A DNA stretch of 63,984 nt, the filler included, from a bacterium (lineage in GTDB: Bacteria; UBA9089; CG2-30-40-21; SBAY01), in assembly GCA_040757115.1 (NCBI GenBank). It is 14 parts of 14 records of this genome, joined end to end, with 100 filler letters (N's around TTAATTAATTAA, not from the genome) between each part and the next. Parts side by side here need not be neighbours in the genome. Positions count along the whole stretch, not along the records: positions 4,845 to 9,577 come from JBFLYA010000281.1; 13 more parts are not named here. The stretch is one strand, 5' to 3'. This document shows positions 1,573 through 52,426 of the stretch, one piece after another. Position 1 is the stretch's first letter. Each line of letters opens with the position of its first letter. Made by a program: the position numbers and the translations under genes. The notes under the pieces were generated by a model, which did not search any database, was not told the origin of the DNA, and saw only the letters and a list, made by a program, of their open reading frames with translations.

Positions 1573-3216
1573 TCAAGAAATCGCCAGCATTCTATCTATG
1601 GCGAGTTTTGCCTTTTGGGCAATGTCGTGGGGGACTTCTATTTTGGGCTCTTCGTCCTCAAGTGCAAAAAGGATTTTTTCGAGGGTAGTGAGTTTCATAT
1701 TTGGACATACGGCGCGGGTAGAGGCAGGATAAAATTGTTTTTGCGGATTTTCTTTTTTTAGACGATGAATAATTCCAACCTCTGTGCCAATGATAAATTC
1801 TGTCCCCTCAGATTCTTTAACATAGCGACACATACCATTTGTGCTTAGAGCGGCATCAGCTACCGCAATTACCCCTTGAGAACACTCTGGATGAACGATA
1901 ACCTTAACCTGTGGATGTTCTTTTTTAATCTGGTGAATTCCTTCTGGAGTTATAGTTTGGTGAGTTGGGCAATAGCCTGGCATCAAAATCATCTCCCGAC
2001 CGGTTTGACGGGTAATATAATCACCCAGATATTTGTCCGGGGTAAATATTATCTTTTGGTTAGGAGGGAGAGAATTAATTACCTTGACGCCGTTGGCTGA
2101 AGTACAGCAATAATCGGATTCTGCTTTAACTTCAACATGGGTATTAACATAGGAGACAACAAGGGCATCAGGATATTCAGCCTTAGTTTGTCTTAAATTT
2201 TCTACACTGACCATATCTGCCATTGGACAGCCAGCGTTTATGTCAGGCATTAGAACTGTTTTATCTGGGGAGAGGATTTTGGCAGTTTCTGCCATAAAAT
2301 GCACGCCGCAAAAGACAATTATCTTTGCATCAGTCTGAGCGGCTTTACGGGATAAATCAAGAGAATCACCTACAAAATCTGCAATATCCTGCACCTCGCC
2401 TCGCTGATAGTTATGTGCCAGAATAATCGCATGTTTGGCTTCCTTAATTTCTTTTATTCTCTCAACTAAATTACTTATTATCCTTCTTTGATGGGTATAG
2501 ATATTCATCGAACCCGCCTTTACCTGACCAATTATGGTCATTCCGGCTGTATCTGCCAGTTGTATGGCTGATGTCGTGGGACAGGAACGGGCGACAAGAA
2601 TTGGTATGCCCAGACGGGCAGACTTGAGCACCATTTCAGAAGATATTCGACCCGTAGAGAGTAAAATTTTATTCGCAACTTCTATCCCCTGAAGCAATGT
2701 CGCTCCTACAACCTTATCAATGGCATTATGCCGACCAATGTCCTCTTTGAAGATTAATATTCCCTTTTTGCTATCAGCCAGAGCCGCAGAATGCACACCG
2801 TATCTGGTAGAATAAGTGAGGAATTCTTTCATTAACCGACTAATCAACCAGGAGGAGAATTTTGCCTTCCCAGTTATTTTTGTTTCGTTTGATAGAGGAC
2901 GAAATATAACTCCTCTGCCACAGCCTGAGGTAATGATTGCAGGGCTATCTTGAAGAGTTTCTCTGGACACTCTAACTTCGATTATTACCTTTTCTTCAGA
3001 TACTTCAAGATTCACAATATCATCTGCATTTTTTATTAATCCTTCTGTCAGTAGAAAACCTATTGCCAATTCCTTTGTATCGGTAGGCGTAGATAGAAGT
3101 GTAACAAAATCTTTGCCATTCAATTTTATATGGAGAGGTTTTTCTTCTGGTACTGCATCTGTTGTTTTTTCAACTTTTTGTGAACTACCAATCTTCAGGA
3201 TATTAACATTTTTCAT
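1573..3216 (-). CDS. nadA: Fusion of FdhD-like sulfurtransferase (N-term) and quinolinate synthase NadA (C-term)
   Basis: N-half: EKPLHIKLNG, ELAIGFLLTEG, TSGCG, EDIGRHNAIDK, TGRISSEM. C-half: ILAHNYQ, FCGVHFMAE, AGCPMA, YCPTH, VHPEC, CPNMK. One continuous ORF. Confidence 0.9.
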   Translation of the reverse strand: MKNVNILKIGSSQKVEKTTDAVPEEKPLHIKLNGKDFVTLLSTPTDTKELAIGFLLTEGLIKNADDIVNLEVSEEKVIIEVRVSRETLQDSPAIITSGCGRGVIFRPLSNETKITGKAKFSSWLISRLMKEFLTYSTRYGVHSAALADSKKGILIFKEDIGRHNAIDKVVGATLLQGIEVANKILLSTGRISSEMVLKSARLGIPILVARSCPTTSAIQLADTAGMTIIGQVKAGSMNIYTHQRRIISNLVERIKEIKEAKHAIILAHNYQRGEVQDIADFVGDSLDLSRKAAQTDAKIIVFCGVHFMAETAKILSPDKTVLMPDINAGCPMADMVSVENLRQTKAEYPDALVVSYVNTHVEVKAESDYCCTSANGVKVINSLPPNQKIIFTPDKYLGDYITRQTGREMILMPGYCPTHQTITPEGIHQIKKEHPQVKVIVHPECSQGVIAVADAALSTNGMCRYVKESEGTEFIIGTEVGIIHRLKKENPQKQFYPASTRAVCPNMKLTTLEKILFALEDEEPKIEVPHDIAQKAKLAIDRMLAIS

Positions 3217-3229
3217 ATAGTTAAGTATA

Positions 3230-4012
3230 TCATTTAGTTAGATTTTTGTCAACCAGCAATTCAGCCGCTTTTTTGCCTGAGAGGAGCATACCGCCAAATA
3301 TTGGTCCCATTCGTGGTCCACCAAAGACGGCATTAGCGGCCATTCCAGCCACATAAACACAGGGATAGATTTCCTTTGTATTCTCAACGATGGTGCGTTC
3401 ACCAACCTCTGCCCACATTGGTTTTTCACCCATAAGGTCACCTGTTGCGGTGAGAAGTTTTTTGCCAATTTTCCTTACAATTATATGAGCTACCTCAGCA
3501 TCATGACCGGTCGCATCAATAACATATCTTGAGCGAATGGTCAAGGGGTCAACATGCAATTTGGCAATATCAACCGCACTCCAATTAAGAACAAGTCCTG
3601 TAACCTTTTTTTCACGAATCATTACATCTTCTGCAGAGATAAGATTAAATATCTTTACCCCAGCTCGAATTGTCTCCAAGCAAAGGGCAGACATAGTTTC
3701 TAATGAATCCGTGACAAAATAGCCGTTTTGATATTTTTCATATCGTATTTTAAAGTCATCGAGGATGGGAAGGGATGCTTCCTGAAAAACACACTTATTA
3801 AACATCATCCCACCACCCCACATACCACCACCAATGGAAAGTTTGCGTTCAAAGATTACTACTTTATGACCTTTTTTTGCCAGATAGTAGGCGGCTGTAA
3901 GACCAGCTGGTCCGCCACCAACAATAGCCACATCACTCTCTAAAAAGTTGACTAAATCTTCGCTCCATTTTTCAATAATCGCCTTTGAGATTACAATATC
4001 ATCTAACTGCAT
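3230..4012 (-). CDS. thi4: Sulfide-dependent adenosine diphosphate thiazole synthase (Thi4)
   Basis: [19 protein letters not shown] (His in place of the suicide Cys), [20 protein letters not shown]. Confidence 0.93.
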
Positions 4013-4031
4013 TTTTTTTGCCTCCTTTTTC

Positions 4032-4542
4032 GTAACTATTTACTCAAGTGAAGTGTCACCAGGGGAAAAAGGGAAAATGATGAAAAATGGGAAAGGGAGA
4101 AATATTCGATCTGTGCAGTTAGCAATAATCTGACAACTAACTTTTGCACGAAAATATTTATAACTTTCTCAATAAACATATCGCTCCTACGGAGCTAATT
4201 TGATGTTGAGACGATAAATCTATAAACATCTCGCCCTTACAGGGCTGAATATATTTTTAAACTCCGTTAGGAGTGATATATTTGTAGACTATGATAATCC
4301 TTAAAGAATTCAGCTCCGTAGGAGCGAAATGTTTAACTTAATTTAACTGCACAGGTGGGAAATATTTGGGTTATGGTTAGGAAACCAGTAGAGAAGTTGG
4401 GTTGAGAAGTTAGTGAAGGAAAAGCCCAATTTCCTAACCCCTCCAACCAAACAGGCATTTTAACCAGCACCTATTTCTTTTCCCTTTTTTCCCAGTTTTT
4501 CCATTCTCCCATATTTACACCTTCAGATGGCTAAAGTGTTAC
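4032..4542. mobile_element. Family A-type MITE in the thi4 leader, with 8-bp TSD
   Basis: Ends GTAACTATTTA / TAAAGTGTTAC; direct repeat cctttttc at 4024-4031 and 4543-4550. Confidence 0.75.
4107..4358. mobile_element. Nested MITE, family C, with REP-like gctcc-N-ggagc hairpins
   Basis: TIR CGATCTGTGCAGTTA / TAACTGCACAGGTGG; gaaatatt on both sides; four short palindromes inside. Confidence 0.65.
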
Positions 4543-4744: not shown

Positions 4745-4844
4745 NNNNNNNNNNNNNNNNNNNNNNNNNNNNNNNNNNNNNNNNNNNNTTAATTAATTAA
4801 NNNNNNNNNNNNNNNNNNNNNNNNNNNNNNNNNNNNNNNNNNNN
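4745..4844. other. Artificial contig linker (first of 13)
   Basis: N44-TTAATTAATTAA-N44; others start at 9578, 14364, 19149, 23755, 28294, 32812, 37326, 41836, 46329, 50762, 55193, 59589. Confidence 0.98.
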
Positions 4845-7821: not shown

Positions 7822-7949
7822 AACTTATCCCTCAATGATTTAATAATAACATATCTGCAACAAAATGTCAAAAGAAAAAGTTGGAAGTGTCAGTGTGAGT
7901 GTCAGTGTCAGTGAAGAAAGGTTGAATTCCTTAACTGTCACTGACACTC

Positions 7950-8002
7950 ATTTTCAGGAGAAACGGTCATGCCGACAAGTCGGCACATAGGAGGATGAAA
8001 AT
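7950..8002 (+). repeat. Family D junction site (ATTTTCAGGAGAA-hairpin-GATGAAAAT)
   Basis: Separates two short repeat-array units; homologues at 18943, 28494, 44529, 52381. Confidence 0.65.
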
Positions 8003-8193
8003 AGTAGAGGGTAGAAAGAGAAAGAAGAGGATTGTCTTTCCTTACTTTCTACTCTCTACTTTCTACTTCCTTATTTTCAGAAAAACCCTTGAGCCTAATT
8101 ACGGACACGGATACCGGACACGATTCACGAATTTTTCGTGTTTCATCCGTCTCTATCTGTGGCAGAATAATTACGAAATTTGTGAATATAATC

Positions 8194-9372: not shown

Positions 9373-9677
9373 ATTTTTAATTATAACACAGGGAATAGCA
9401 AAATGCAAGAAAAAAGGAAGAAAACCTTCAATTCAGACATAAAAAAAGAAGATATATAGCAGTTATTAGTCAAAACTTTACTCAGAGTGGATAAGTAAAA
9501 AAAATCCCAAATCCCAAGCACCAAATCTCAAATAAACACCAAATTCCACATACCAAAAAGCGAATTAGAGATTAGTGNNNNNNNNNNNNNNNNNNNNNNN
9601 NNNNNNNNNNNNNNNNNNNNNTTAATTAATTAANNNNNNNNNNNNNNNNNNNNNNNNNNNNNNNNNNNNNNNNNNNN

Positions 9678-12981: not shown

Positions 12982-13167
12982 AAAAGCTCTGATTCGCTGT
13001 CTTTTCCTTTTCCTCTGCCTCACCGAATTATTGTGCATTCCACATTCACGGTTGACCCTAAAATATCTCCTTTTTATTTTCTCACACAAAGCCACAAAGA
13101 ACACAAAGGTTTATTGTTTTATTCAATTCCTTTGTGACTTTGTGTCTCTGTGTGATTATTTTTATTA
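12982..13167 (-). other. ORF-less cassette built from repeat remnants (multi-copy 3' part)
   Basis: Bounded by GTTAGAC / GTCTAAC; holds an empty cacaaag/ctttgtg inverted pair and a half family G REP; 3' part recurs at 9799, 14261, 14464. Confidence 0.7.
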
Positions 13168-13227
13168 GTCTAACGACCGAGCTCACCTGCCCACCTTAGG
13201 CGGATCAGGTGCAGCGATGGGTTAGGC
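13168..13227 (-). repeat. Short (60 bp) attC site
   Basis: Minus strand GCCTAACCCATCGCTGCACCTGATCCGCC...GGGCAGGTGAGCTCGGTCGTTAGAC; upstream ORF stop inside GCCTAAC. Confidence 0.9.
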
Positions 13228-14106
13228 TTTTTTAATTTCCTGTTCAAATTGCTTAAGCTTCTCACGACATTTTTTCAATGATAATCTACGCAGTTTCTTT
13301 ACCCTTTCCGCTAAGTATTCCAGTTCAGATTTGGTAATCTTGTATGATTTTTTGTATCTTGCATCAACATAGGCTTTTTTAAGGAGTTCAAACAATCTCT
13401 TTTCTTCACCTTCTTTTCTTGGAAAGATCTTACAGAAATCCTGGTCAATCTTCTCCATCCTCTTGGTCAGTTTCTCTAAATCATGGGTTCTGGGTTTGTA
13501 ACCAGTAAGGACAAGGGAAGTGCCCGTGTATAGGGCTTCAGCAGTCTGGTGGAGTTCAAAAGCGGCTTTGTTATAATTTTTATCTCCAATTGCATACCCA
13601 TAATGCTTAAAAGATACCTTTGCATTCTTAAACCAAGTCTTATAATCCTCCTCTGCCAGCTTCTTCTTCATTCCCGGAGTAAGCTTTCTTGCCCTGGCTA
13701 ATTGGAACCTCTTTGAGTCATAGAGTAAGATGCCCTCTTTTTTGATGTCAGCATAGAAGTATCTGCCAACCGAGAGTTGTTCATTGACATGCTCAATATC
13801 CTCAATGATTAAGCTTACCGGGGTAGGGATTTTACGGCTGATCTGATTCTCTACCTTTCCCCAGATCTTAAAATCCTCAGGCTTTTTCTCATCCTTTACA
13901 ATCACCATAATGTCAAAGTCAGACTCATAGCTGGTAAAGTGCCCTTCTTCTTTATCATAGCGAAAGTCAGAGTCAACAAAGTCTCCCCTGGCATAGCTAC
14001 CAAAGAGAATGATCATCTCTACCCTGGTGGCATGAGAGATAAGCTTGGTAATAGTCTCCAATTCCCTCTGTTTCCTGAAAGGAAGATGGTCTATGCTTGT
14101 TTTCAT
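13222..14106 (-). CDS. MNT nucleotidyltransferase-HEPN fusion cassette protein
   Basis: ILFGSYARG...SDFDI (MNT); AAFELHQTAE, RTHDL, AYVDARY (HEPN). Confidence 0.88.
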   Translation of the reverse strand: MKTSIDHLPFRKQRELETITKLISHATRVEMIILFGSYARGDFVDSDFRYDKEEGHFTSYESDFDIMVIVKDEKKPEDFKIWGKVENQISRKIPTPVSLIIEDIEHVNEQLSVGRYFYADIKKEGILLYDSKRFQLARARKLTPGMKKKLAEEDYKTWFKNAKVSFKHYGYAIGDKNYNKAAFELHQTAEALYTGTSLVLTGYKPRTHDLEKLTKRMEKIDQDFCKIFPRKEGEEKRLFELLKKAYVDARYKKSYKITKSELEYLAERVKKLRRLSLKKCREKLKQFEQEIKKA

Positions 14107-18851: not shown

Positions 18852-18863
18852 ATTTTCTATGAT

Positions 18864-18987
18864 TCTCCTGAAAATAAGGAAGTAGAGAGTAGAAAGTAGA
18901 AAGTAAAGAAAACATCACTCCTCACGCCTATCTCCTACCACTATTTTCATCGTCATTTGTGAGTCGCAGACTCATGAGCGTTTCTCC
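18864..18987 (-). mobile_element. Family D element (complete unit)
   Basis: ttctcc direct repeats at both ends, internal tgaaaat/attttca inverted pair, tgagtc-gca-gactca hairpin, GTAGAAA/GTAGAGA heptamer payload. Confidence 0.65.
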
Positions 18988-19601
18988 TTTAATCTTTGCG
19001 TTCTTTGCGATTAAAAAAGGAGTAACCGTTCAGGCTATATATCAAAAGTGTAAGAAAGGGGATAAGGAGATAAGGGCGATATGGAGATAAGATAATAGAA
19101 ATAGATTGAAATTTATAGAAATAGGTAGAAATTGATTGTGGGAAACAANNNNNNNNNNNNNNNNNNNNNNNNNNNNNNNNNNNNNNNNNNNNTTAATTAA
19201 TTAANNNNNNNNNNNNNNNNNNNNNNNNNNNNNNNNNNNNNNNNNNNNTGTAAGAAAGGGGATAAGGAGATAAGAGTGATATGGAGATAAGATAATAGAA
19301 ATAGATTGAAATTTATAGAAATAGGTAGAAATTGATTGTGGAAAACAACAAATTTCCATAAATTTCTATTAGTTCTATTAATTTCAATTTTTTTAATAAT
19401 ATCTCCCTATCTCCTTAATCTCCACATCTCCTTTTGTTACACCACTTGAACGCTTACTTATTTTTATCCTACCCGAACCCTTACGATTTTTTTTATTATC
19501 CTGATAATCTGTGCAAATCTGCGTCCCATTAACTTGAAAACCAATTCCGTGCTAATCCGTGTTAATCAATGGCTGAATAGTTACAATTTACGAAACTCCT
19601 G

Positions 19602-20657: not shown

Positions 20658-20761
20658 TTCCNNNNNNNNNNNNNNNNNNNNNNNNNNNNNNNNNNNNNNN
20701 NNNNNNNNNNNNNNNNNNNNNNNNNNNNNNNNNNNNNNNNNNNNNNNNNNNNNNNNNNNNN

Positions 20762-28393: not shown

Positions 28394-28790
28394 TATAAAA
28401 ACATCAAGAAACACTAAGGGAATAACTATAGAAATACAATATAAAAAATTAATTTTATCCTGTTCATCTGCGAAAATCTGCGTCCTAATTTACATTTTCA
28501 GGAGAAAGGGTCATGAGTCTGCGGCTCACAAAGGGGGATGAAAATAATGGAAGAACAACCCCCTAACCCCCTTTATTAAGGGGGAATATCTCTTCTACAC
28601 CAGAGGATACGAGTCTGTGGATACTATACTAATTCGCTAATCTCTAATTCACTAATTCGCTATTTTCAGGGGAAAATAGTAGGTAGGAGATAGAAGGTGG
28701 GAGGTAAGGAGATAGGCGTAAGGAGTGATGTTTTCTTTACTTTCTACTCTCTACTCTCTACTCTCTACTCTCTACTTCCTACTTTCAGGT
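28394..28790 (+). mobile_element. Tandem of three family D units
   Basis: Full junction at 28494-28545, reduced junction at 28662-28677; each unit has a different repeat payload. Confidence 0.6.
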
Positions 28791-29766
28791 GAAAGTGTTT
28801 AAGTCCATCTTAAATAAAAATAAATACATAGATAGCTGGTTCTGGGATAGATACACTATTAATTCATATAATGGTTGTCAGTTTGGCTGTGTTTATTGTG
28901 ATGCCAGAAGTGAAAAATATCATCTGCCAACAGATTTTGAGAATGATATTGTTGTCAAAAAAGATGCCGCTCTAATGCTTGATAAAAGGTTGACTAATGC
29001 AAGAACCTTATTGCCTGATGTGGTCGCACTATCAGGCACAAGCGACCCCTATCAACCAATAGAGGCAAAATTCAAGAATACAAGGCAATGTTTAGAGGTT
29101 TTAAAGAAACATAAGTATCCTGTTCATATCATCACGAAATCAAGATTAGTTTTGCGAGATTTAGATTTGTTAGAGGAAATTGGCAAACAGACCACCTGGT
29201 GCACTATCTCTATCACGATTACCACAACAAATTCTGAGATAGCAAGATTTCTTGAAAAAAGAGCCCCTCTGCCTCAAATAAGATTTGCCATGATAAAAAC
29301 AATAAAAGAAAAAACAGAAAATATCCAGGCTGGCGTTTTATTTATTCCTGTGGTTCCCTATCTTTGCGATTCGGATGAAATTTTAGAGGAAATGGTAAAA
29401 AAGAGTAAAGAGGTGGGGGCAGATTATATCCTTATTGCTGGTGGAATGACTATGCGTGATTTGCAAGCAAAATGGTTTTTGAAACACCTCAAAGAGCGAT
29501 ACCCCGAACTTATTGAAAGATACGAAGAACTCTACAATTTTAAATACAACCCAGATTTTTATGATGGTGACTATGAACCAACAAAAGACTATATTATAAA
29601 CCTTCATAAAAAGATATTTGCCTTATGCGAGAAATACAAAATAGCTTATAGAATAAAGCGGTTTATCCCACAGGATTTCAGGAAGAAAAGCTATCTGGTC
29701 GCAGAAAATCTTTTAAATGATGCTTATCATCGGCAGGTATGTGGTTGTAATTACAATCTTTTTTGA
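28789..29766 (+). CDS. Radical SAM protein (SPL/Rv2578c-like)
   Basis: GCQFGCVYC, SDPYQPIE, ITKS; the GTG start lies at the element boundary, so the native N-terminus may be lost. Confidence 0.85.
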   Translation: MKVFKSILNKNKYIDSWFWDRYTINSYNGCQFGCVYCDARSEKYHLPTDFENDIVVKKDAALMLDKRLTNARTLLPDVVALSGTSDPYQPIEAKFKNTRQCLEVLKKHKYPVHIITKSRLVLRDLDLLEEIGKQTTWCTISITITTTNSEIARFLEKRAPLPQIRFAMIKTIKEKTENIQAGVLFIPVVPYLCDSDEILEEMVKKSKEVGADYILIAGGMTMRDLQAKWFLKHLKERYPELIERYEELYNFKYNPDFYDGDYEPTKDYIINLHKKIFALCEKYKIAYRIKRFIPQDFRKKSYLVAENLLNDAYHRQVCGCNYNLF

Positions 29767-44509: not shown

Positions 44510-44618
44510 TCACTATTTAGTCATCTGAAGTGAAATGGACATAAGCCTGCGACTCACAATGATGATGAAAACAAAGGAATTCGGGATTGGGAGGTCGGGA
44601 TTCGGGAATAAAAGAATC

Positions 44619-44937: not shown

Positions 44938-44971
44938 AAAGAATCCCCGAACCGCGATTTTCAGGGAAATT

Positions 44972-46075
44972 ATGAATAACACAGATATAAAATCATGGAT
45001 TAGATTAAATATGATTAAAGGCATAGGACCGATGAGATTTGCTACCTTGCTGAAACATTTTGGAAGCCCTCAAGAAATCCTGTCGGCTAATGTCTCAAGT
45101 TTAAGCCAGGTAAAAGGAATTGGAAATCAGATAGCTACTTCCATCGTTGAACAAAAAGATAAAGTGGAAATAAACCGCGAACTTGAAAAGATTGAAAAAG
45201 AAGGGGTAAATATTTTAACCTTAAATAGTGAGGAATATCCTAAAAACTTAAAATCTATCTATGACCCACCACCAGTTCTTTATGTTAAGGGTGAAATCAG
45301 GACACAAGATAGGTTGGCGATTGCGATGGTTGGTTCGCGAGCCGCAACTACTTATGGAAAAACAATCGCTTACCGACTTGCTCAAGAATTAGTTCAATCT
45401 GGATTTACGATAGTCAGCGGATTGGCACGAGGAATTGATGTTGCCTCTCATCGTGGTGCAATTGAGACTAAAGGAAGGACAATTGCGGTTTTAGGTTGCG
45501 GCATAGATATAATCTATCCGCTTGAAAATAAAAGTCTGTTTTATGAGATTATAAATCAGGGGGCGGTTGTAAGTGAATTTCCATTTGGCACACCACCAGA
45601 AAAGTTTAATTTCCCACAACGCAATCGGATAATCAGTGGTTTATCACTGGGCACGGTTATTGTTGAAGCACCTCTACGAAGTGGGGCATTGATTACCGCA
45701 GATTGCGCCTTAGAGCAAAATCGCGAGGTATTTGCTGTCCCCGGACATATAGAAAGTAGATTAAGCAAAGGAACTCATCAATTAATCAAACAAGGGGCTA
45801 AATTAACGGAATCAGCACAGGATATAATTGAAGAACTTGAATTATTTACAGACGCATTAAAAAAAATCCCGGAAGTTAAAAAAAACAATGAAATAAAACT
45901 CTCAAAAGATGAAGAAAAAATATATCAGTTACTTTCTCCCGCAGAACCTCAATATATTGATACTATTTCCTCTTCCTCTCAAATGACTGCATCCCAGGTA
46001 GCCGCTCTTTTAATTCAACTTGAAATTAAAGGTCTAATTAAACAATTAATTGGTAAAAGATTTGTGCGATGTTAA
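44972..46075 (+). CDS. dprA: DNA-processing protein DprA
   Basis: DPPPVLY, VGSR, VSGLARGID, FPQRNRIISGL, SGALIT, C-terminal winged helix. Confidence 0.95.
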   Translation: MNNTDIKSWIRLNMIKGIGPMRFATLLKHFGSPQEILSANVSSLSQVKGIGNQIATSIVEQKDKVEINRELEKIEKEGVNILTLNSEEYPKNLKSIYDPPPVLYVKGEIRTQDRLAIAMVGSRAATTYGKTIAYRLAQELVQSGFTIVSGLARGIDVASHRGAIETKGRTIAVLGCGIDIIYPLENKSLFYEIINQGAVVSEFPFGTPPEKFNFPQRNRIISGLSLGTVIVEAPLRSGALITADCALEQNREVFAVPGHIESRLSKGTHQLIKQGAKLTESAQDIIEELELFTDALKKIPEVKKNNEIKLSKDEEKIYQLLSPAEPQYIDTISSSSQMTASQVAALLIQLEIKGLIKQLIGKRFVRC

Positions 46076-52100: not shown

Positions 52101-52426
52101 TTCTCCTGAGAATAAGGAAGTAGAGAGTAGAAAGTAAAGAAAACATCACTCCTCACGCCTATCTTCTTACCTCCCACCTTCTATCTCCTACCACTATTTT
52201 CATCATCCTTCTCCTGAAAATAGGTTATGGGACGCAGATTTTCGCAGATGAACAGGATTAAAATTAATTTTTTATTATTGTATTTCTATAATTATTTCCT
52301 TAGAGTTTCTTGATGTTTTTATAGTGCATTAGTGGTTTTTCTTTAAAATCTTGTAAATCCTGTAAATCTGCGTCCCATTAATTTTCATCGTCGTTTGTGT
52401 CCACGCTGTGGACATAAGCGTTTCTC
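52101..52426 (-). mobile_element. Tandem of two family D units
   Basis: ttctc repeats at about 52101, 52209 and 52422; hairpin tgtccac-gct-gtggaca; payloads match those at 18864 and 28394. Confidence 0.65.

Follow-up and report, generated by a model that had tools for sequence, protein, structure and literature searches.

Stacking hairpin units at the ribosome-binding words of a groundwater bacterium: a candidate family of small, non-autonomous mobile repeats

What are the short sites that recur in the DNA of an uncultivated groundwater bacterium, each with a hairpin whose sequence changes from copy to copy, and what moves the DNA that they join? The question is raised by a 63,984-nt stretch of assembly GCA_040757115.1 (the window), in which an earlier note had described five such sites, family D, as the joints of tandem-forming units and had proposed a cassette system outside the integrons. 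We favour, with moderate confidence, the reading that family D is the 5′ module of lineage-specific, small, non-coding and non-autonomous mobile units, which would be inserted as single strands by an HUH/Y1-type enzyme. The window strings together ~14 contigs of ~4.5 kb each, with N44-TTAATTAATTAA-N44 linkers between them (27 N runs, at 4745-4844, 9578-9677 and so on, with one N100 at 20662-20761), so that features lying across a linker, D arrays included, are not genomic neighbours; the five D sites stand one per contig on five different contigs. The fragmented source assembly, G000 (462 contigs, 4.32 Mb, 36.8% G+C), was compared with the one other genome of its genus, G001 (97-98% identical in unique DNA), and with four more of the family (f1), within a set of 25 species genomes of the phylum in all.

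The D module is 44-48 nt long, with the consensus (A)G-G(A/G)GAAAC-N3-C-ATG, a stem of 5-7 pairs, a loop, the returning stem and CACAAA-N4-GATGAAAAT. The motif given in the earlier note is present in all five window copies, but the module is longer than was noted and includes GAAAC-N3-CATG. A covariance model trained on 43 copies matched exactly the same five window sites, with E from 2.2e-13 to 6.6e-8; after them came a match of E=0.066. The junction word TTTTCAGGAGAA (at most one mismatch) occurs six times in the window against 1.23 expected, a number reached by 0/100 shuffles, and WTTTYCAGRDRA occurs 10 times against 1.9 expected. Over the whole source assembly an nhmmer profile gave 174 D matches at E<1e-3, 138 of them full length, and a regular-expression count gave 180 hairpin-bearing copies; the copy number is about 175-180.

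The stems quoted at the outset are as written, and the observation that they vary in sequence and keep pairing held in a larger alignment of 43 distinct copies (A2), where 97.8% of 229 cells pair and three of the six pairs are altered on both sides (50 cells). The covariation score was 0.504, compared with 0.125 in shuffles, and was attained by 0/500 of them; sliding the stem partners by 1-3 columns reduced pairing to 19-49%. Different stems belong to different sub-families of units, so the covariation is one between copy lineages, and several independent double changes are needed to produce it.

Behind the GATGAAAAT of D comes a body of 47-170 nt in most copies (47-449 nt across all with a recognisable end), and a recognisable ...TTTTCAG end was found within 450 nt of D in 139 of 157 copies. 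The bodies fall into at least 15 families, mostly imperfect palindromes of heptamer-like repeats, often mosaic, and the foot of the palindrome is always TGAAAAT/ATTTTCA (7 bp). Across 157 parsed units the pre-hairpin segment, the stem, the post-hairpin segment and the downstream body were tightly associated (z 9.5-22.4) and the upstream body tail was unassociated with D (z up to 1.5), which indicates that D and the body that follows it travel together. The core base after CAG (GAGAA, GGGAA or AAGAA) goes with the preceding unit, the tail TCGCT-ATTTTCAG being followed by GGGAA in 25/33 cases, and D copies that come first in an array, with ordinary DNA upstream, carry GAGAA in 46 of 56; the GRGAA is thus the 3′ end of a unit and the GGAGAA before a unit is its target. 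We therefore place the limits of the unit at ACGCTCATG ... ATTTTCAG-GRGAA, behind GGAGAA(A). These true ends (ACGCTCATG / CAGGRGAA) are not inverted repeats of each other and the flanking word is always GGAGAA-like; the lack of the terminal inverted repeats of a DDE element at the true ends agrees with the earlier argument against DDE transposition. A minority of units have no hairpin segment, as at 52196-52213 (GAGAAGGATGATGAAAAT). In the window the units are laid out as follows.

7880..7957, plus strand: hairpin-less unit body, a heptamer-repeat palindrome, end ATTTTCAG (7950-7957); the same body stands at the orthologous place in G001.
7958..8002, plus strand: D copy 1, GAGAAACGGTCATG, stem GCCGAC/GTCGGC, CACATAGGAGGATGAAAAT (56.1 bits, E 3.5e-11); the orthologous D in G001 has another stem and is preceded by one extra unit.
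8003..8080, plus strand: body of unit 1, an imperfect palindrome, end ATTTTCAG (8073-8080).
18863..18942, minus strand: body of unit 2, end ATTTTCAG (18868-18875), then GAGAA (18863-18867).
18943..18986, minus strand: D copy 2, stem GAGTC/GACTC (65.6 bits, E 2.2e-13).
28394..28501, plus strand: unit body of which the contig start leaves the 3′ part, end ATTTTCAG (28494-28501).
28502..28545, plus strand: D copy 3, stem GAGTC/G(G)CTC (59.1 bits, E 7.1e-12).
28546..28669, plus strand: body of unit 3, AATGG family, end ATTTTCAG (28662-28669).
28670..28788, plus strand: hairpin-less linker GGGAAAAT and AGTAGG-family body, end CTTTCAG, abutting the start of the open reading frame (ORF) 28789-29766.
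44530..44572, plus strand: D copy 4, degenerate (GTGAAAT..ATAAGCC..GATGAAAAC; 42 bits, E 6.6e-8).
44957..44971, plus strand: ATTTTCAG-GGAA terminus, 8 nt before the ATG of ORF 44972-46075; likely the end of the array begun at 44530.
52101..52213, minus strand: hairpin-less linker GAGAAGGATGATGAAAAT (52196-52213), AGTGG-family body ending ATTCTCAG (52106-52113), GAGAA (52101-52105).
52214..52380, minus strand: body of unit 5, TAATG family, end ATTTTCAG (52214-52221).
52381..52426, minus strand: D copy 5, stem GTCCAC/GTGGAC (55.5 bits, E 4.8e-11).

Tandems are present at 7880-8080, 28394-28788 and 52106-52426, as had been described, but their payloads are non-coding imperfect palindromes and not genes; none of the 157 units bears a gene and the bodies have no conserved ORFs. 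Predicted folds of the bodies are much more stable than those of shuffles (median z -4.6, 40 bodies sampled). The D (gene-sense) strand gives the better fold in 111 of 175 distinct bodies and the other strand in 57, a count that overstates the evidence since copies within a body family are not independent, and G-U (G-T) pairs make up 859 of the 6511 pairs in bodies (13%). This asymmetry points to a single-stranded form of the sense strand, either DNA or RNA.

Other identities for the units were considered and dropped. Translation from the ATG of D into a small protein was rejected, the peptides not being conserved and the 129 ORFs ending variously in the body (88), in D (34) or near the unit end (3). 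Readings as a ribozyme (hammerhead or other), CRISPR repeat, retron or group I/II intron were set aside on the motif, which lacks the defining words or sizes, and on Rfam, in which the window had no match reaching the gathering threshold and three loci carrying an end of the insertion sequence (IS) described below had none up to E=1. In some GGGTT-family bodies (for example G000:C92:4628-4790; G001:C329, L072) a word like a junction, GGTTCAG|GTGAAATCAGGC..., occurs internally, and what lies behind it is also met as a separate unit, so bodies can be fused units.

Comparison of the two genomes of the genus revealed units that are present, absent or replaced exactly at CAG|GRGAA, which bears out the idea of discrete units joined at one conserved site. 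Two clean empty/filled pairs were obtained. In the first, G000:C411 reads ATTGGAGAAAAGAATG followed by a gene, and G001:C394 reads ATTGGAGAAACGCTC, 123 nt and TTTTCAGGAGAAAGAATG in front of the same gene; in the second, G000:C334 reads ...CTTTCAGGAGAATCC and G001:C545 is identical with the addition of a 166-nt unit behind that GAGAA. At window locus 7957/7958 one further complete unit stands in G001, exactly there. At four orthologous loci the cassettes were replaced, with stem, body family and number completely different between flanks (97-98% identical) and junction words that were kept. The native word of the empty sites was already GGAGAA-like before insertion, and GGAGAA(A) stands on both sides of an inserted unit. 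Of the earlier description of the ends, the inverted repeat is corrected to the TGAAAAT/ATTTTCA foot, and the absence of a target-site duplication is indistinguishable from a shared core, the same word flanking both sides.

The place where arrays end is equally specific. The source assembly contains 395 ATTTTCAG ends with a GRGA-like word next to them, and another D follows in 103. Array ends without a following D number 290, and in 64 of them the first ATG of an ORF (100 aa or longer) comes 5-16 nt further on (mode 9-10); the same is true of 187 of 40,000 random places (0.5%) and 102 of 3,524 other GGAGAA words. Since this is the Shine-Dalgarno distance, the gene takes the GRGAA at the 3′ end of the last unit as its Shine-Dalgarno word; in the window this is so at 28788/28789 and 44964/44972. 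Counted from the genes, 64/166 (~39%) of the GGAGAA-type starts in G000 carry a unit.

The D model was found in all five other genomes of the family, with at least 150 (G001), 46, 34, 4 and 2 copies, and with 1-2 copies in 5/19 further genomes of the phylum; the architecture of D, free body and ATTTTCAG|G was recovered at seven loci from seven relative genomes. An exact-pattern scan of 185,579 species genomes gave three loci, all in one other metagenome-assembled genome; the diverged copies in relatives came to light with the model search.

How, then, do the units move? In the mechanism that we favour, a unit of ~100-220 nt, made up of ACGCTCATG, a short hairpin, CACAAAGGAGGATGAAAAT, a long free-sequence imperfect palindrome on the foot TGAAAAT/ATTTTCA and the end ...ATTTTCAG-GRGAA, is inserted in one orientation directly behind GGAGAA(A), usually the Shine-Dalgarno sequence of a gene or the GRGAA that ends a resident unit. 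Because the unit brings its own 3′ GRGAA, the downstream gene would keep a ribosome-binding word at the right distance, and because each insertion recreates the target, head-to-tail stacks could grow and units could be swapped. Movement would be in single-stranded form, the gene-sense strand being the one on which both hairpins are read, and the mover would be a trans-acting HUH/Y1-type enzyme, for which a short word on the 5′ side of the insertion point would suffice. Insertion in one orientation, 3′ to a fixed short word, was seen in the two clean pairs and at the unit ends, with the left flank otherwise free, an arrangement that a shared core also fits. Single-strand ‘peel and paste’ fits best on account of the fixed word on the 5′ side only and the free flank before it, the lack of terminal inverted repeats at the true ends with hairpins near both of them, the one favoured strand, and a 3′ end that repeats the target and forms head-to-tail stacks.

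Precedents for such a mechanism are the PATEs and REPINs, non-autonomous hairpin elements moved by the TnpA of IS200/IS605 or by RAYT, HUH/Y1 enzymes, through single-strand peel and paste (available text of PMC5027513 and PMC3597680 and, for REPINs, of PMC3116915). Like the units, both are small, non-coding and rich in hairpins, have no terminal inverted repeats at their true ends and no evident target duplication, recognise a fixed short word on the 5′ side only and reach hundreds of copies; they use one active strand and a mover in trans, as the units would. The units differ from them in that the two hairpins are dissimilar, the 3′ end repeats the target so that stacks form, and the target is a ribosome-binding word; moreover, no TnpA or RAYT was found flanked by unit ends, and a relative with 34 D copies shows no intact Y1.

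A number of observations weigh against insertion by an HUH/Y1 enzyme. No D or unit end lies near the Y1_Tnp loci examined (7/7 in G000 and 3/9 in G001, L041, L042 and L044), the reverse-transcriptase and TnpB loci, or the four other IS110 genes of G000, whose surroundings are unrelated, and TnpB is absent from the G000 assembly. The linked recombinase that was sought among Y1/HUH, IS110, TnpB and reverse-transcriptase genes was thus found adjoining no unit, tyrosine recombinases not having been searched for; high-copy elements are poorly assembled in these genomes, which makes the absence of a linked enzyme weak evidence. Y1 and D show no co-distribution in the 25 genomes, Y1 being spread over the phylum regardless of D, and the relative with 34 D copies (G003, 94% completeness) has only two weak Y1 fragments. 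The two hairpins at the ends of IS200/IS605 elements are alike; in a unit they differ both in sequence and in size. The 6-7-nt word shared on both sides fits the core of a tyrosine recombinase equally well. In the first clean pair one A in an A-run is off the prediction of any simple model, and a two-unit insertion into AAAGGGAGAAAAATAGAGG (C33), present in G001 and absent from G000, has inexact junctions. The units are oriented 77 to 22 towards the G-rich strand, and genes are no less biased (81% of long-ORF bases); a replication-strand bias of the units, inseparable from gene orientation, was therefore dropped. Finally, all the polymorphism evidence comes from two short-read, repeat-rich metagenome assemblies, and wrong assembly paths through repeats could mimic cassette replacement, clean empty sites being harder to fake. 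The public runs that match the stretch are all contigs of one groundwater metagenome study, with no RNA run among them; across a 14-kb locus their joints were repeat-driven, of a kind that shows neither circles nor empty sites nor rare variants.

Two Y1 loci of the source assembly have features of their own. At G000:C430 ~13070-14060 (L045:1150-2140) a 154-aa IS200-like (RAYT-like) Y1 gene is flanked by four 37-nt repeats (GTGCGAATAATAGACCTGATGAATAAGGGATTGCGAC) spaced ~70-77 nt apart, which are either a small CRISPR-like array or the REP partner of the Y1 gene. At G000:C119 ~1800-3660 (L040:1459-3312) an IS200-type TnpA domain (Y1_Tnp, 2.9e-44) is C-terminal in a 617-aa open frame, suggesting an in-frame fusion of an insertion with a host gene.

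The main rival is the circle integration of the earlier note, by a core-type site-specific recombinase, which fits the same junctions. In this integron- or phage-like scheme, which we regard as unlikely, units excised as double-stranded or folded single-stranded circles would be integrated by a tyrosine recombinase at a 6-7-bp core, GGAGAA(A), that donor and target have in common, with the palindromes acting like attC. One word does stand on both sides of each insert and at every junction, the bodies of 47-170 nt vary in sequence and are always hairpins with a conserved 7-bp foot, and the core base is loosely tied to either neighbour (mutual information z 0.4-3.9), as expected for a crossover inside the core. 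As in integron cassettes, the arrays have one orientation, the boundary site is structured, keeping its fold and the conserved words at its foot as its sequence varies, and whole cassettes are exchanged between conserved flanks. Unlike integron cassettes, however, the units carry no genes and their arrays stand at dozens of loci before ordinary genes, and no attI or integron integrase was seen, the integrase not having been searched for. attC has conserved core words of its own, which do not match the foot TGAAAAT/ATTTTCA with CAG|GRGAA; the difference between these words and the junction ATTTTCAG-GRGAA, together with the lack of any Rfam match, agrees with the earlier statement that the site is not attC. 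No recombinase gene was seen beside any array examined, in a search that did not extend to tyrosine recombinases. The left flank of array-first units is unconserved beyond AG, which leaves no second recombinase-binding arm, and the core variant goes with the unit upstream, so that the crossover falls at the right edge of the core and not inside it.

Rather unlikely, too, is a recombinase-in-trans cassette system of a new kind, in which non-coding hairpin cassettes would enter, leave and be swapped at the ribosome-binding words of many ordinary genes. The enzyme would follow none of the integron, IS200/IS605 and IS110 schemes, or would be a familiar one in a novel role. If true, it would give a cell or an element a way to rewrite dozens of 5′ leaders with the Shine-Dalgarno word always restored.

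It is quite improbable that the units are non-mobile, structured 5′-leader modules for expression control, spread by slippage, gene conversion and short-homology recombination, although several features look the part. The units are sense-oriented and stand immediately in front of start codons, the sense strand is favoured by G-U pairs, every D begins GGAGAAAC-N3-C-ATG, resembling a perfect initiation region, and mosaic bodies with heptamer repeats point to slippage. The nearest known repeats in position, Neisseria REP2 and the Borrelia IR repeats, likewise combine a ribosome-binding site, an ATG and two stem-loops immediately upstream of genes; as described in the available text of PMC3184786, they differ in having tens of copies, standing singly and not stacked, and carrying a promoter, and insertion or replacement polymorphism at a defined word is not described in that text. 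Against such modules, the 123-nt unit is a de novo insertion into a unique site where identity extends over no more than 7 nt, not enough for exchange of the RecA type, ~226 of the 290 array ends are not at such gene starts, and the mini-ORFs from the ATG of D are unconserved in frame, length and stop position.

The earlier note had also likened the joining of units to IS110/IS1111 integration. An IS110-family IS does use D as its specific target, sitting between CACAAAG and GACGATG at ~22-25 contig ends. The 25 left junctions all lie within 130 nt of a contig end, and 22 of them follow a hairpin and CA(C)AAAG, with at least 13 different stems; the 23 right junctions read ...TATACGAGGA(C/G)|GATGAAAAT, also read as ...ACGAGGA(C/G)|GATGAAAA, and are followed by bodies of many families. 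A complete IS of ~2.15 kb, with D halves on both sides, was found on a 2.2-kb contig (G018:C289, L011, 2196 nt) of a genome binned in another family; its ends are 98-100% identical to those in G000, and mis-binning from the same community or a recent transfer is the likely cause. The transposase has 412 aa (L002:363-1601, minus strand) and matches DEDD_Tnp_IS110 (PF01548, 4e-21) and Transposase_20 (PF02371, 2e-23). No match to the IS end was found in the plasmid collection.

The IS is site-specific and without terminal inverted repeats, and CT, a possible 2-nt core, occurs at both junctions in IS orientation (ATTTTCATCGTC-CT-CGTATAAT... and ...CCATAAGA-CT-TTGTG). Its 580-nt leader contains ATCGTCCTCGT (position 340), equal to the left flank, the core and the first IS bases, then ACAAAG (position 384, 36 nt after ATCGTCCTCGT), the complement of the core and right flank, and CGTAAGA (position 424), which matches the right end of the IS. 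A relative whose protein is 56% identical has another target (TTTATTTTCC-CT-...), and there the homologous leader word, ATTTTTCCCTGT, is changed to fit that target. The minimum-energy fold of the leader does not show the loops, and Rfam gave no match to it. On these word matches, CACAA-AG-GACGAT of D is probably the target specified by a putative bridge RNA of the IS, a reading with better support than that of the units' movement. GGAC before GATGAAAAT was found at 20/23 right junctions compared with 2/157 intact D copies, which would be explained by the match of the leader words to the GGAC variant of D.

This resembles the IS110/IS1111 elements ISPpu9 and ISPpu10, whose targets are REP sequences (available text of PMC12288879 and bioRxiv 10.64898/2026.03.19.712850), and the bridge RNA of IS621 and seekRNA (available text of PMC11208160 and PMC11187229). 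As far as those texts go, the REP-targeting elements are also DEDD elements at one fixed place in a repeated intergenic motif beside a stem-loop, with leader words that match the flanks around a 2-nt core (CT here) and with only the matching motif variant occupied. The IS in D differs in that it lands in a module belonging to another mobile unit, the lineage being uncultivated, and its bridge RNA is proposed from word matches and one covarying relative. D would be a natural multi-copy target of a bridge-RNA-type IS110 element and a useful example for bridge-recombinase specificity. Two deletion derivatives of the IS occur, at G000:C244 (minus strand, ~3509) and G000:C197 (minus strand, ~144-260); in one of the two the CACAAAG of D adjoins a site from inside the IS, ..GTCAAG|TGGAAAGATG.., that is similar to the target of the IS itself, and the other is without part of the transposase gene.

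That the units are themselves passengers of an IS110-family bridge recombinase, carried in trans as small circles, is very improbable. Transposase-less modules moved by an IS110 enzyme have a published precedent (ssr9 and ISPpu9, available text of PMC12288879), and IS110-family genes are present in G000 (the D-targeting IS and four others). The D-targeting IS, however, crosses over inside D, ~12-15 nt away from where units join, and has ends (…CCATAAGA / CGTATAAT…) that do not resemble those of the units (ACGCTCATG... / ...ATTTTCAGGRGAA). The other IS110 loci are without D or unit ends, and bridge recombination needs defined sequence on both sides of the 2-nt core, whereas the left flank of solitary units is free. 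The IS is a guest of the D site, and a role for it as mover of the units is not supported.

Highly improbable is an RNA route, in which units would be transcribed, reverse-transcribed and integrated at the GGAGAA word: the strand asymmetry with its G-U pairs and the transcribed position suit it, and Elhai and colleagues are said to have proposed it in 2008 for very small dispersed repeats of cyanobacteria that are embedded, like the units, in heptamer repeats, but the units have no poly-A or other retro-element marks and the reverse transcriptases of G000 are of defence type (a fusion of reverse transcriptase, TPR and primase) or weak matches, not of mobile-element types, with none near D. The fusion is an ORF of at least 776 aa at G000:C356:659-2986 (L047), comprising a reverse transcriptase of the defence type, TPR repeats and the archaeo-eukaryotic primase of a TOTE conflict system (PF22548, 2.2e-51).

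We rate the units as small non-autonomous bacterial mobile repeats of which insertion at, and restoring of, a ribosome-binding word with stacking is the new feature; a full-text literature search gave no description of small repeats that do so. REP, BOX, Correia, REP2 and PATE repeats are common, and their mover and insertion rule are mostly unknown, whereas here the rule is readable from the sequence. Insertion behind GGAGAA(A) by a unit that brings GGRGAA would explain the stacking, the tolerance of units before start codons and the occupation of ~39% of the GGAGAA-type starts. If confirmed, this would make the units a clear example of selfish elements whose target is the signal for starting translation, which they also repair; mRNA leaders would then have a natural means of varying rapidly.

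Two further kinds of repeat offer comparison. BOX repeats are modular and variable in number, with strong predicted folds and compensatory changes, like the units; they differ in having terminal inverted repeats and target duplications, and targeting of a ribosome-binding word is not described in the available text of PMC3049150. A classical MITE (a miniature transposable element with inverted repeats) of the DDE type is unlike the units in its terminal inverted repeats and site-variable target duplication. The same genomes provide an instance of both features, a 236-nt MITE unrelated to family D that is present in G001 (L037, C44 ~3880-4116) and absent from G000 (C68 ~19690), with ends TGTAACCGTTCAGG.../...CTGAACGCTTAC and a flanking TATAAT(C) duplication.

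Other repeats of the source assembly were also seen. A second and more abundant one, with ends ...CCTTATCCCCTTTCTTACACTTTTGATATATAGCCTGAACGGTTAC, lies in the window at 19030-19148 (minus strand) and breaks the assembly at 84 G000 contig ends; probably it is an IS or MITE, present in many copies and bounded by terminal repeats of the GTAACCGTTCAGG type. Another family is the palindrome CCCTGATTTTCATCAGGGCA / TGC(A/C)CTGATGAAAATCAGGGATG, with 87 pattern matches in G000 (for example at C9:13238, C10:355 and C11:8110), which has the word GATGAAAAT in common with family D in another context.

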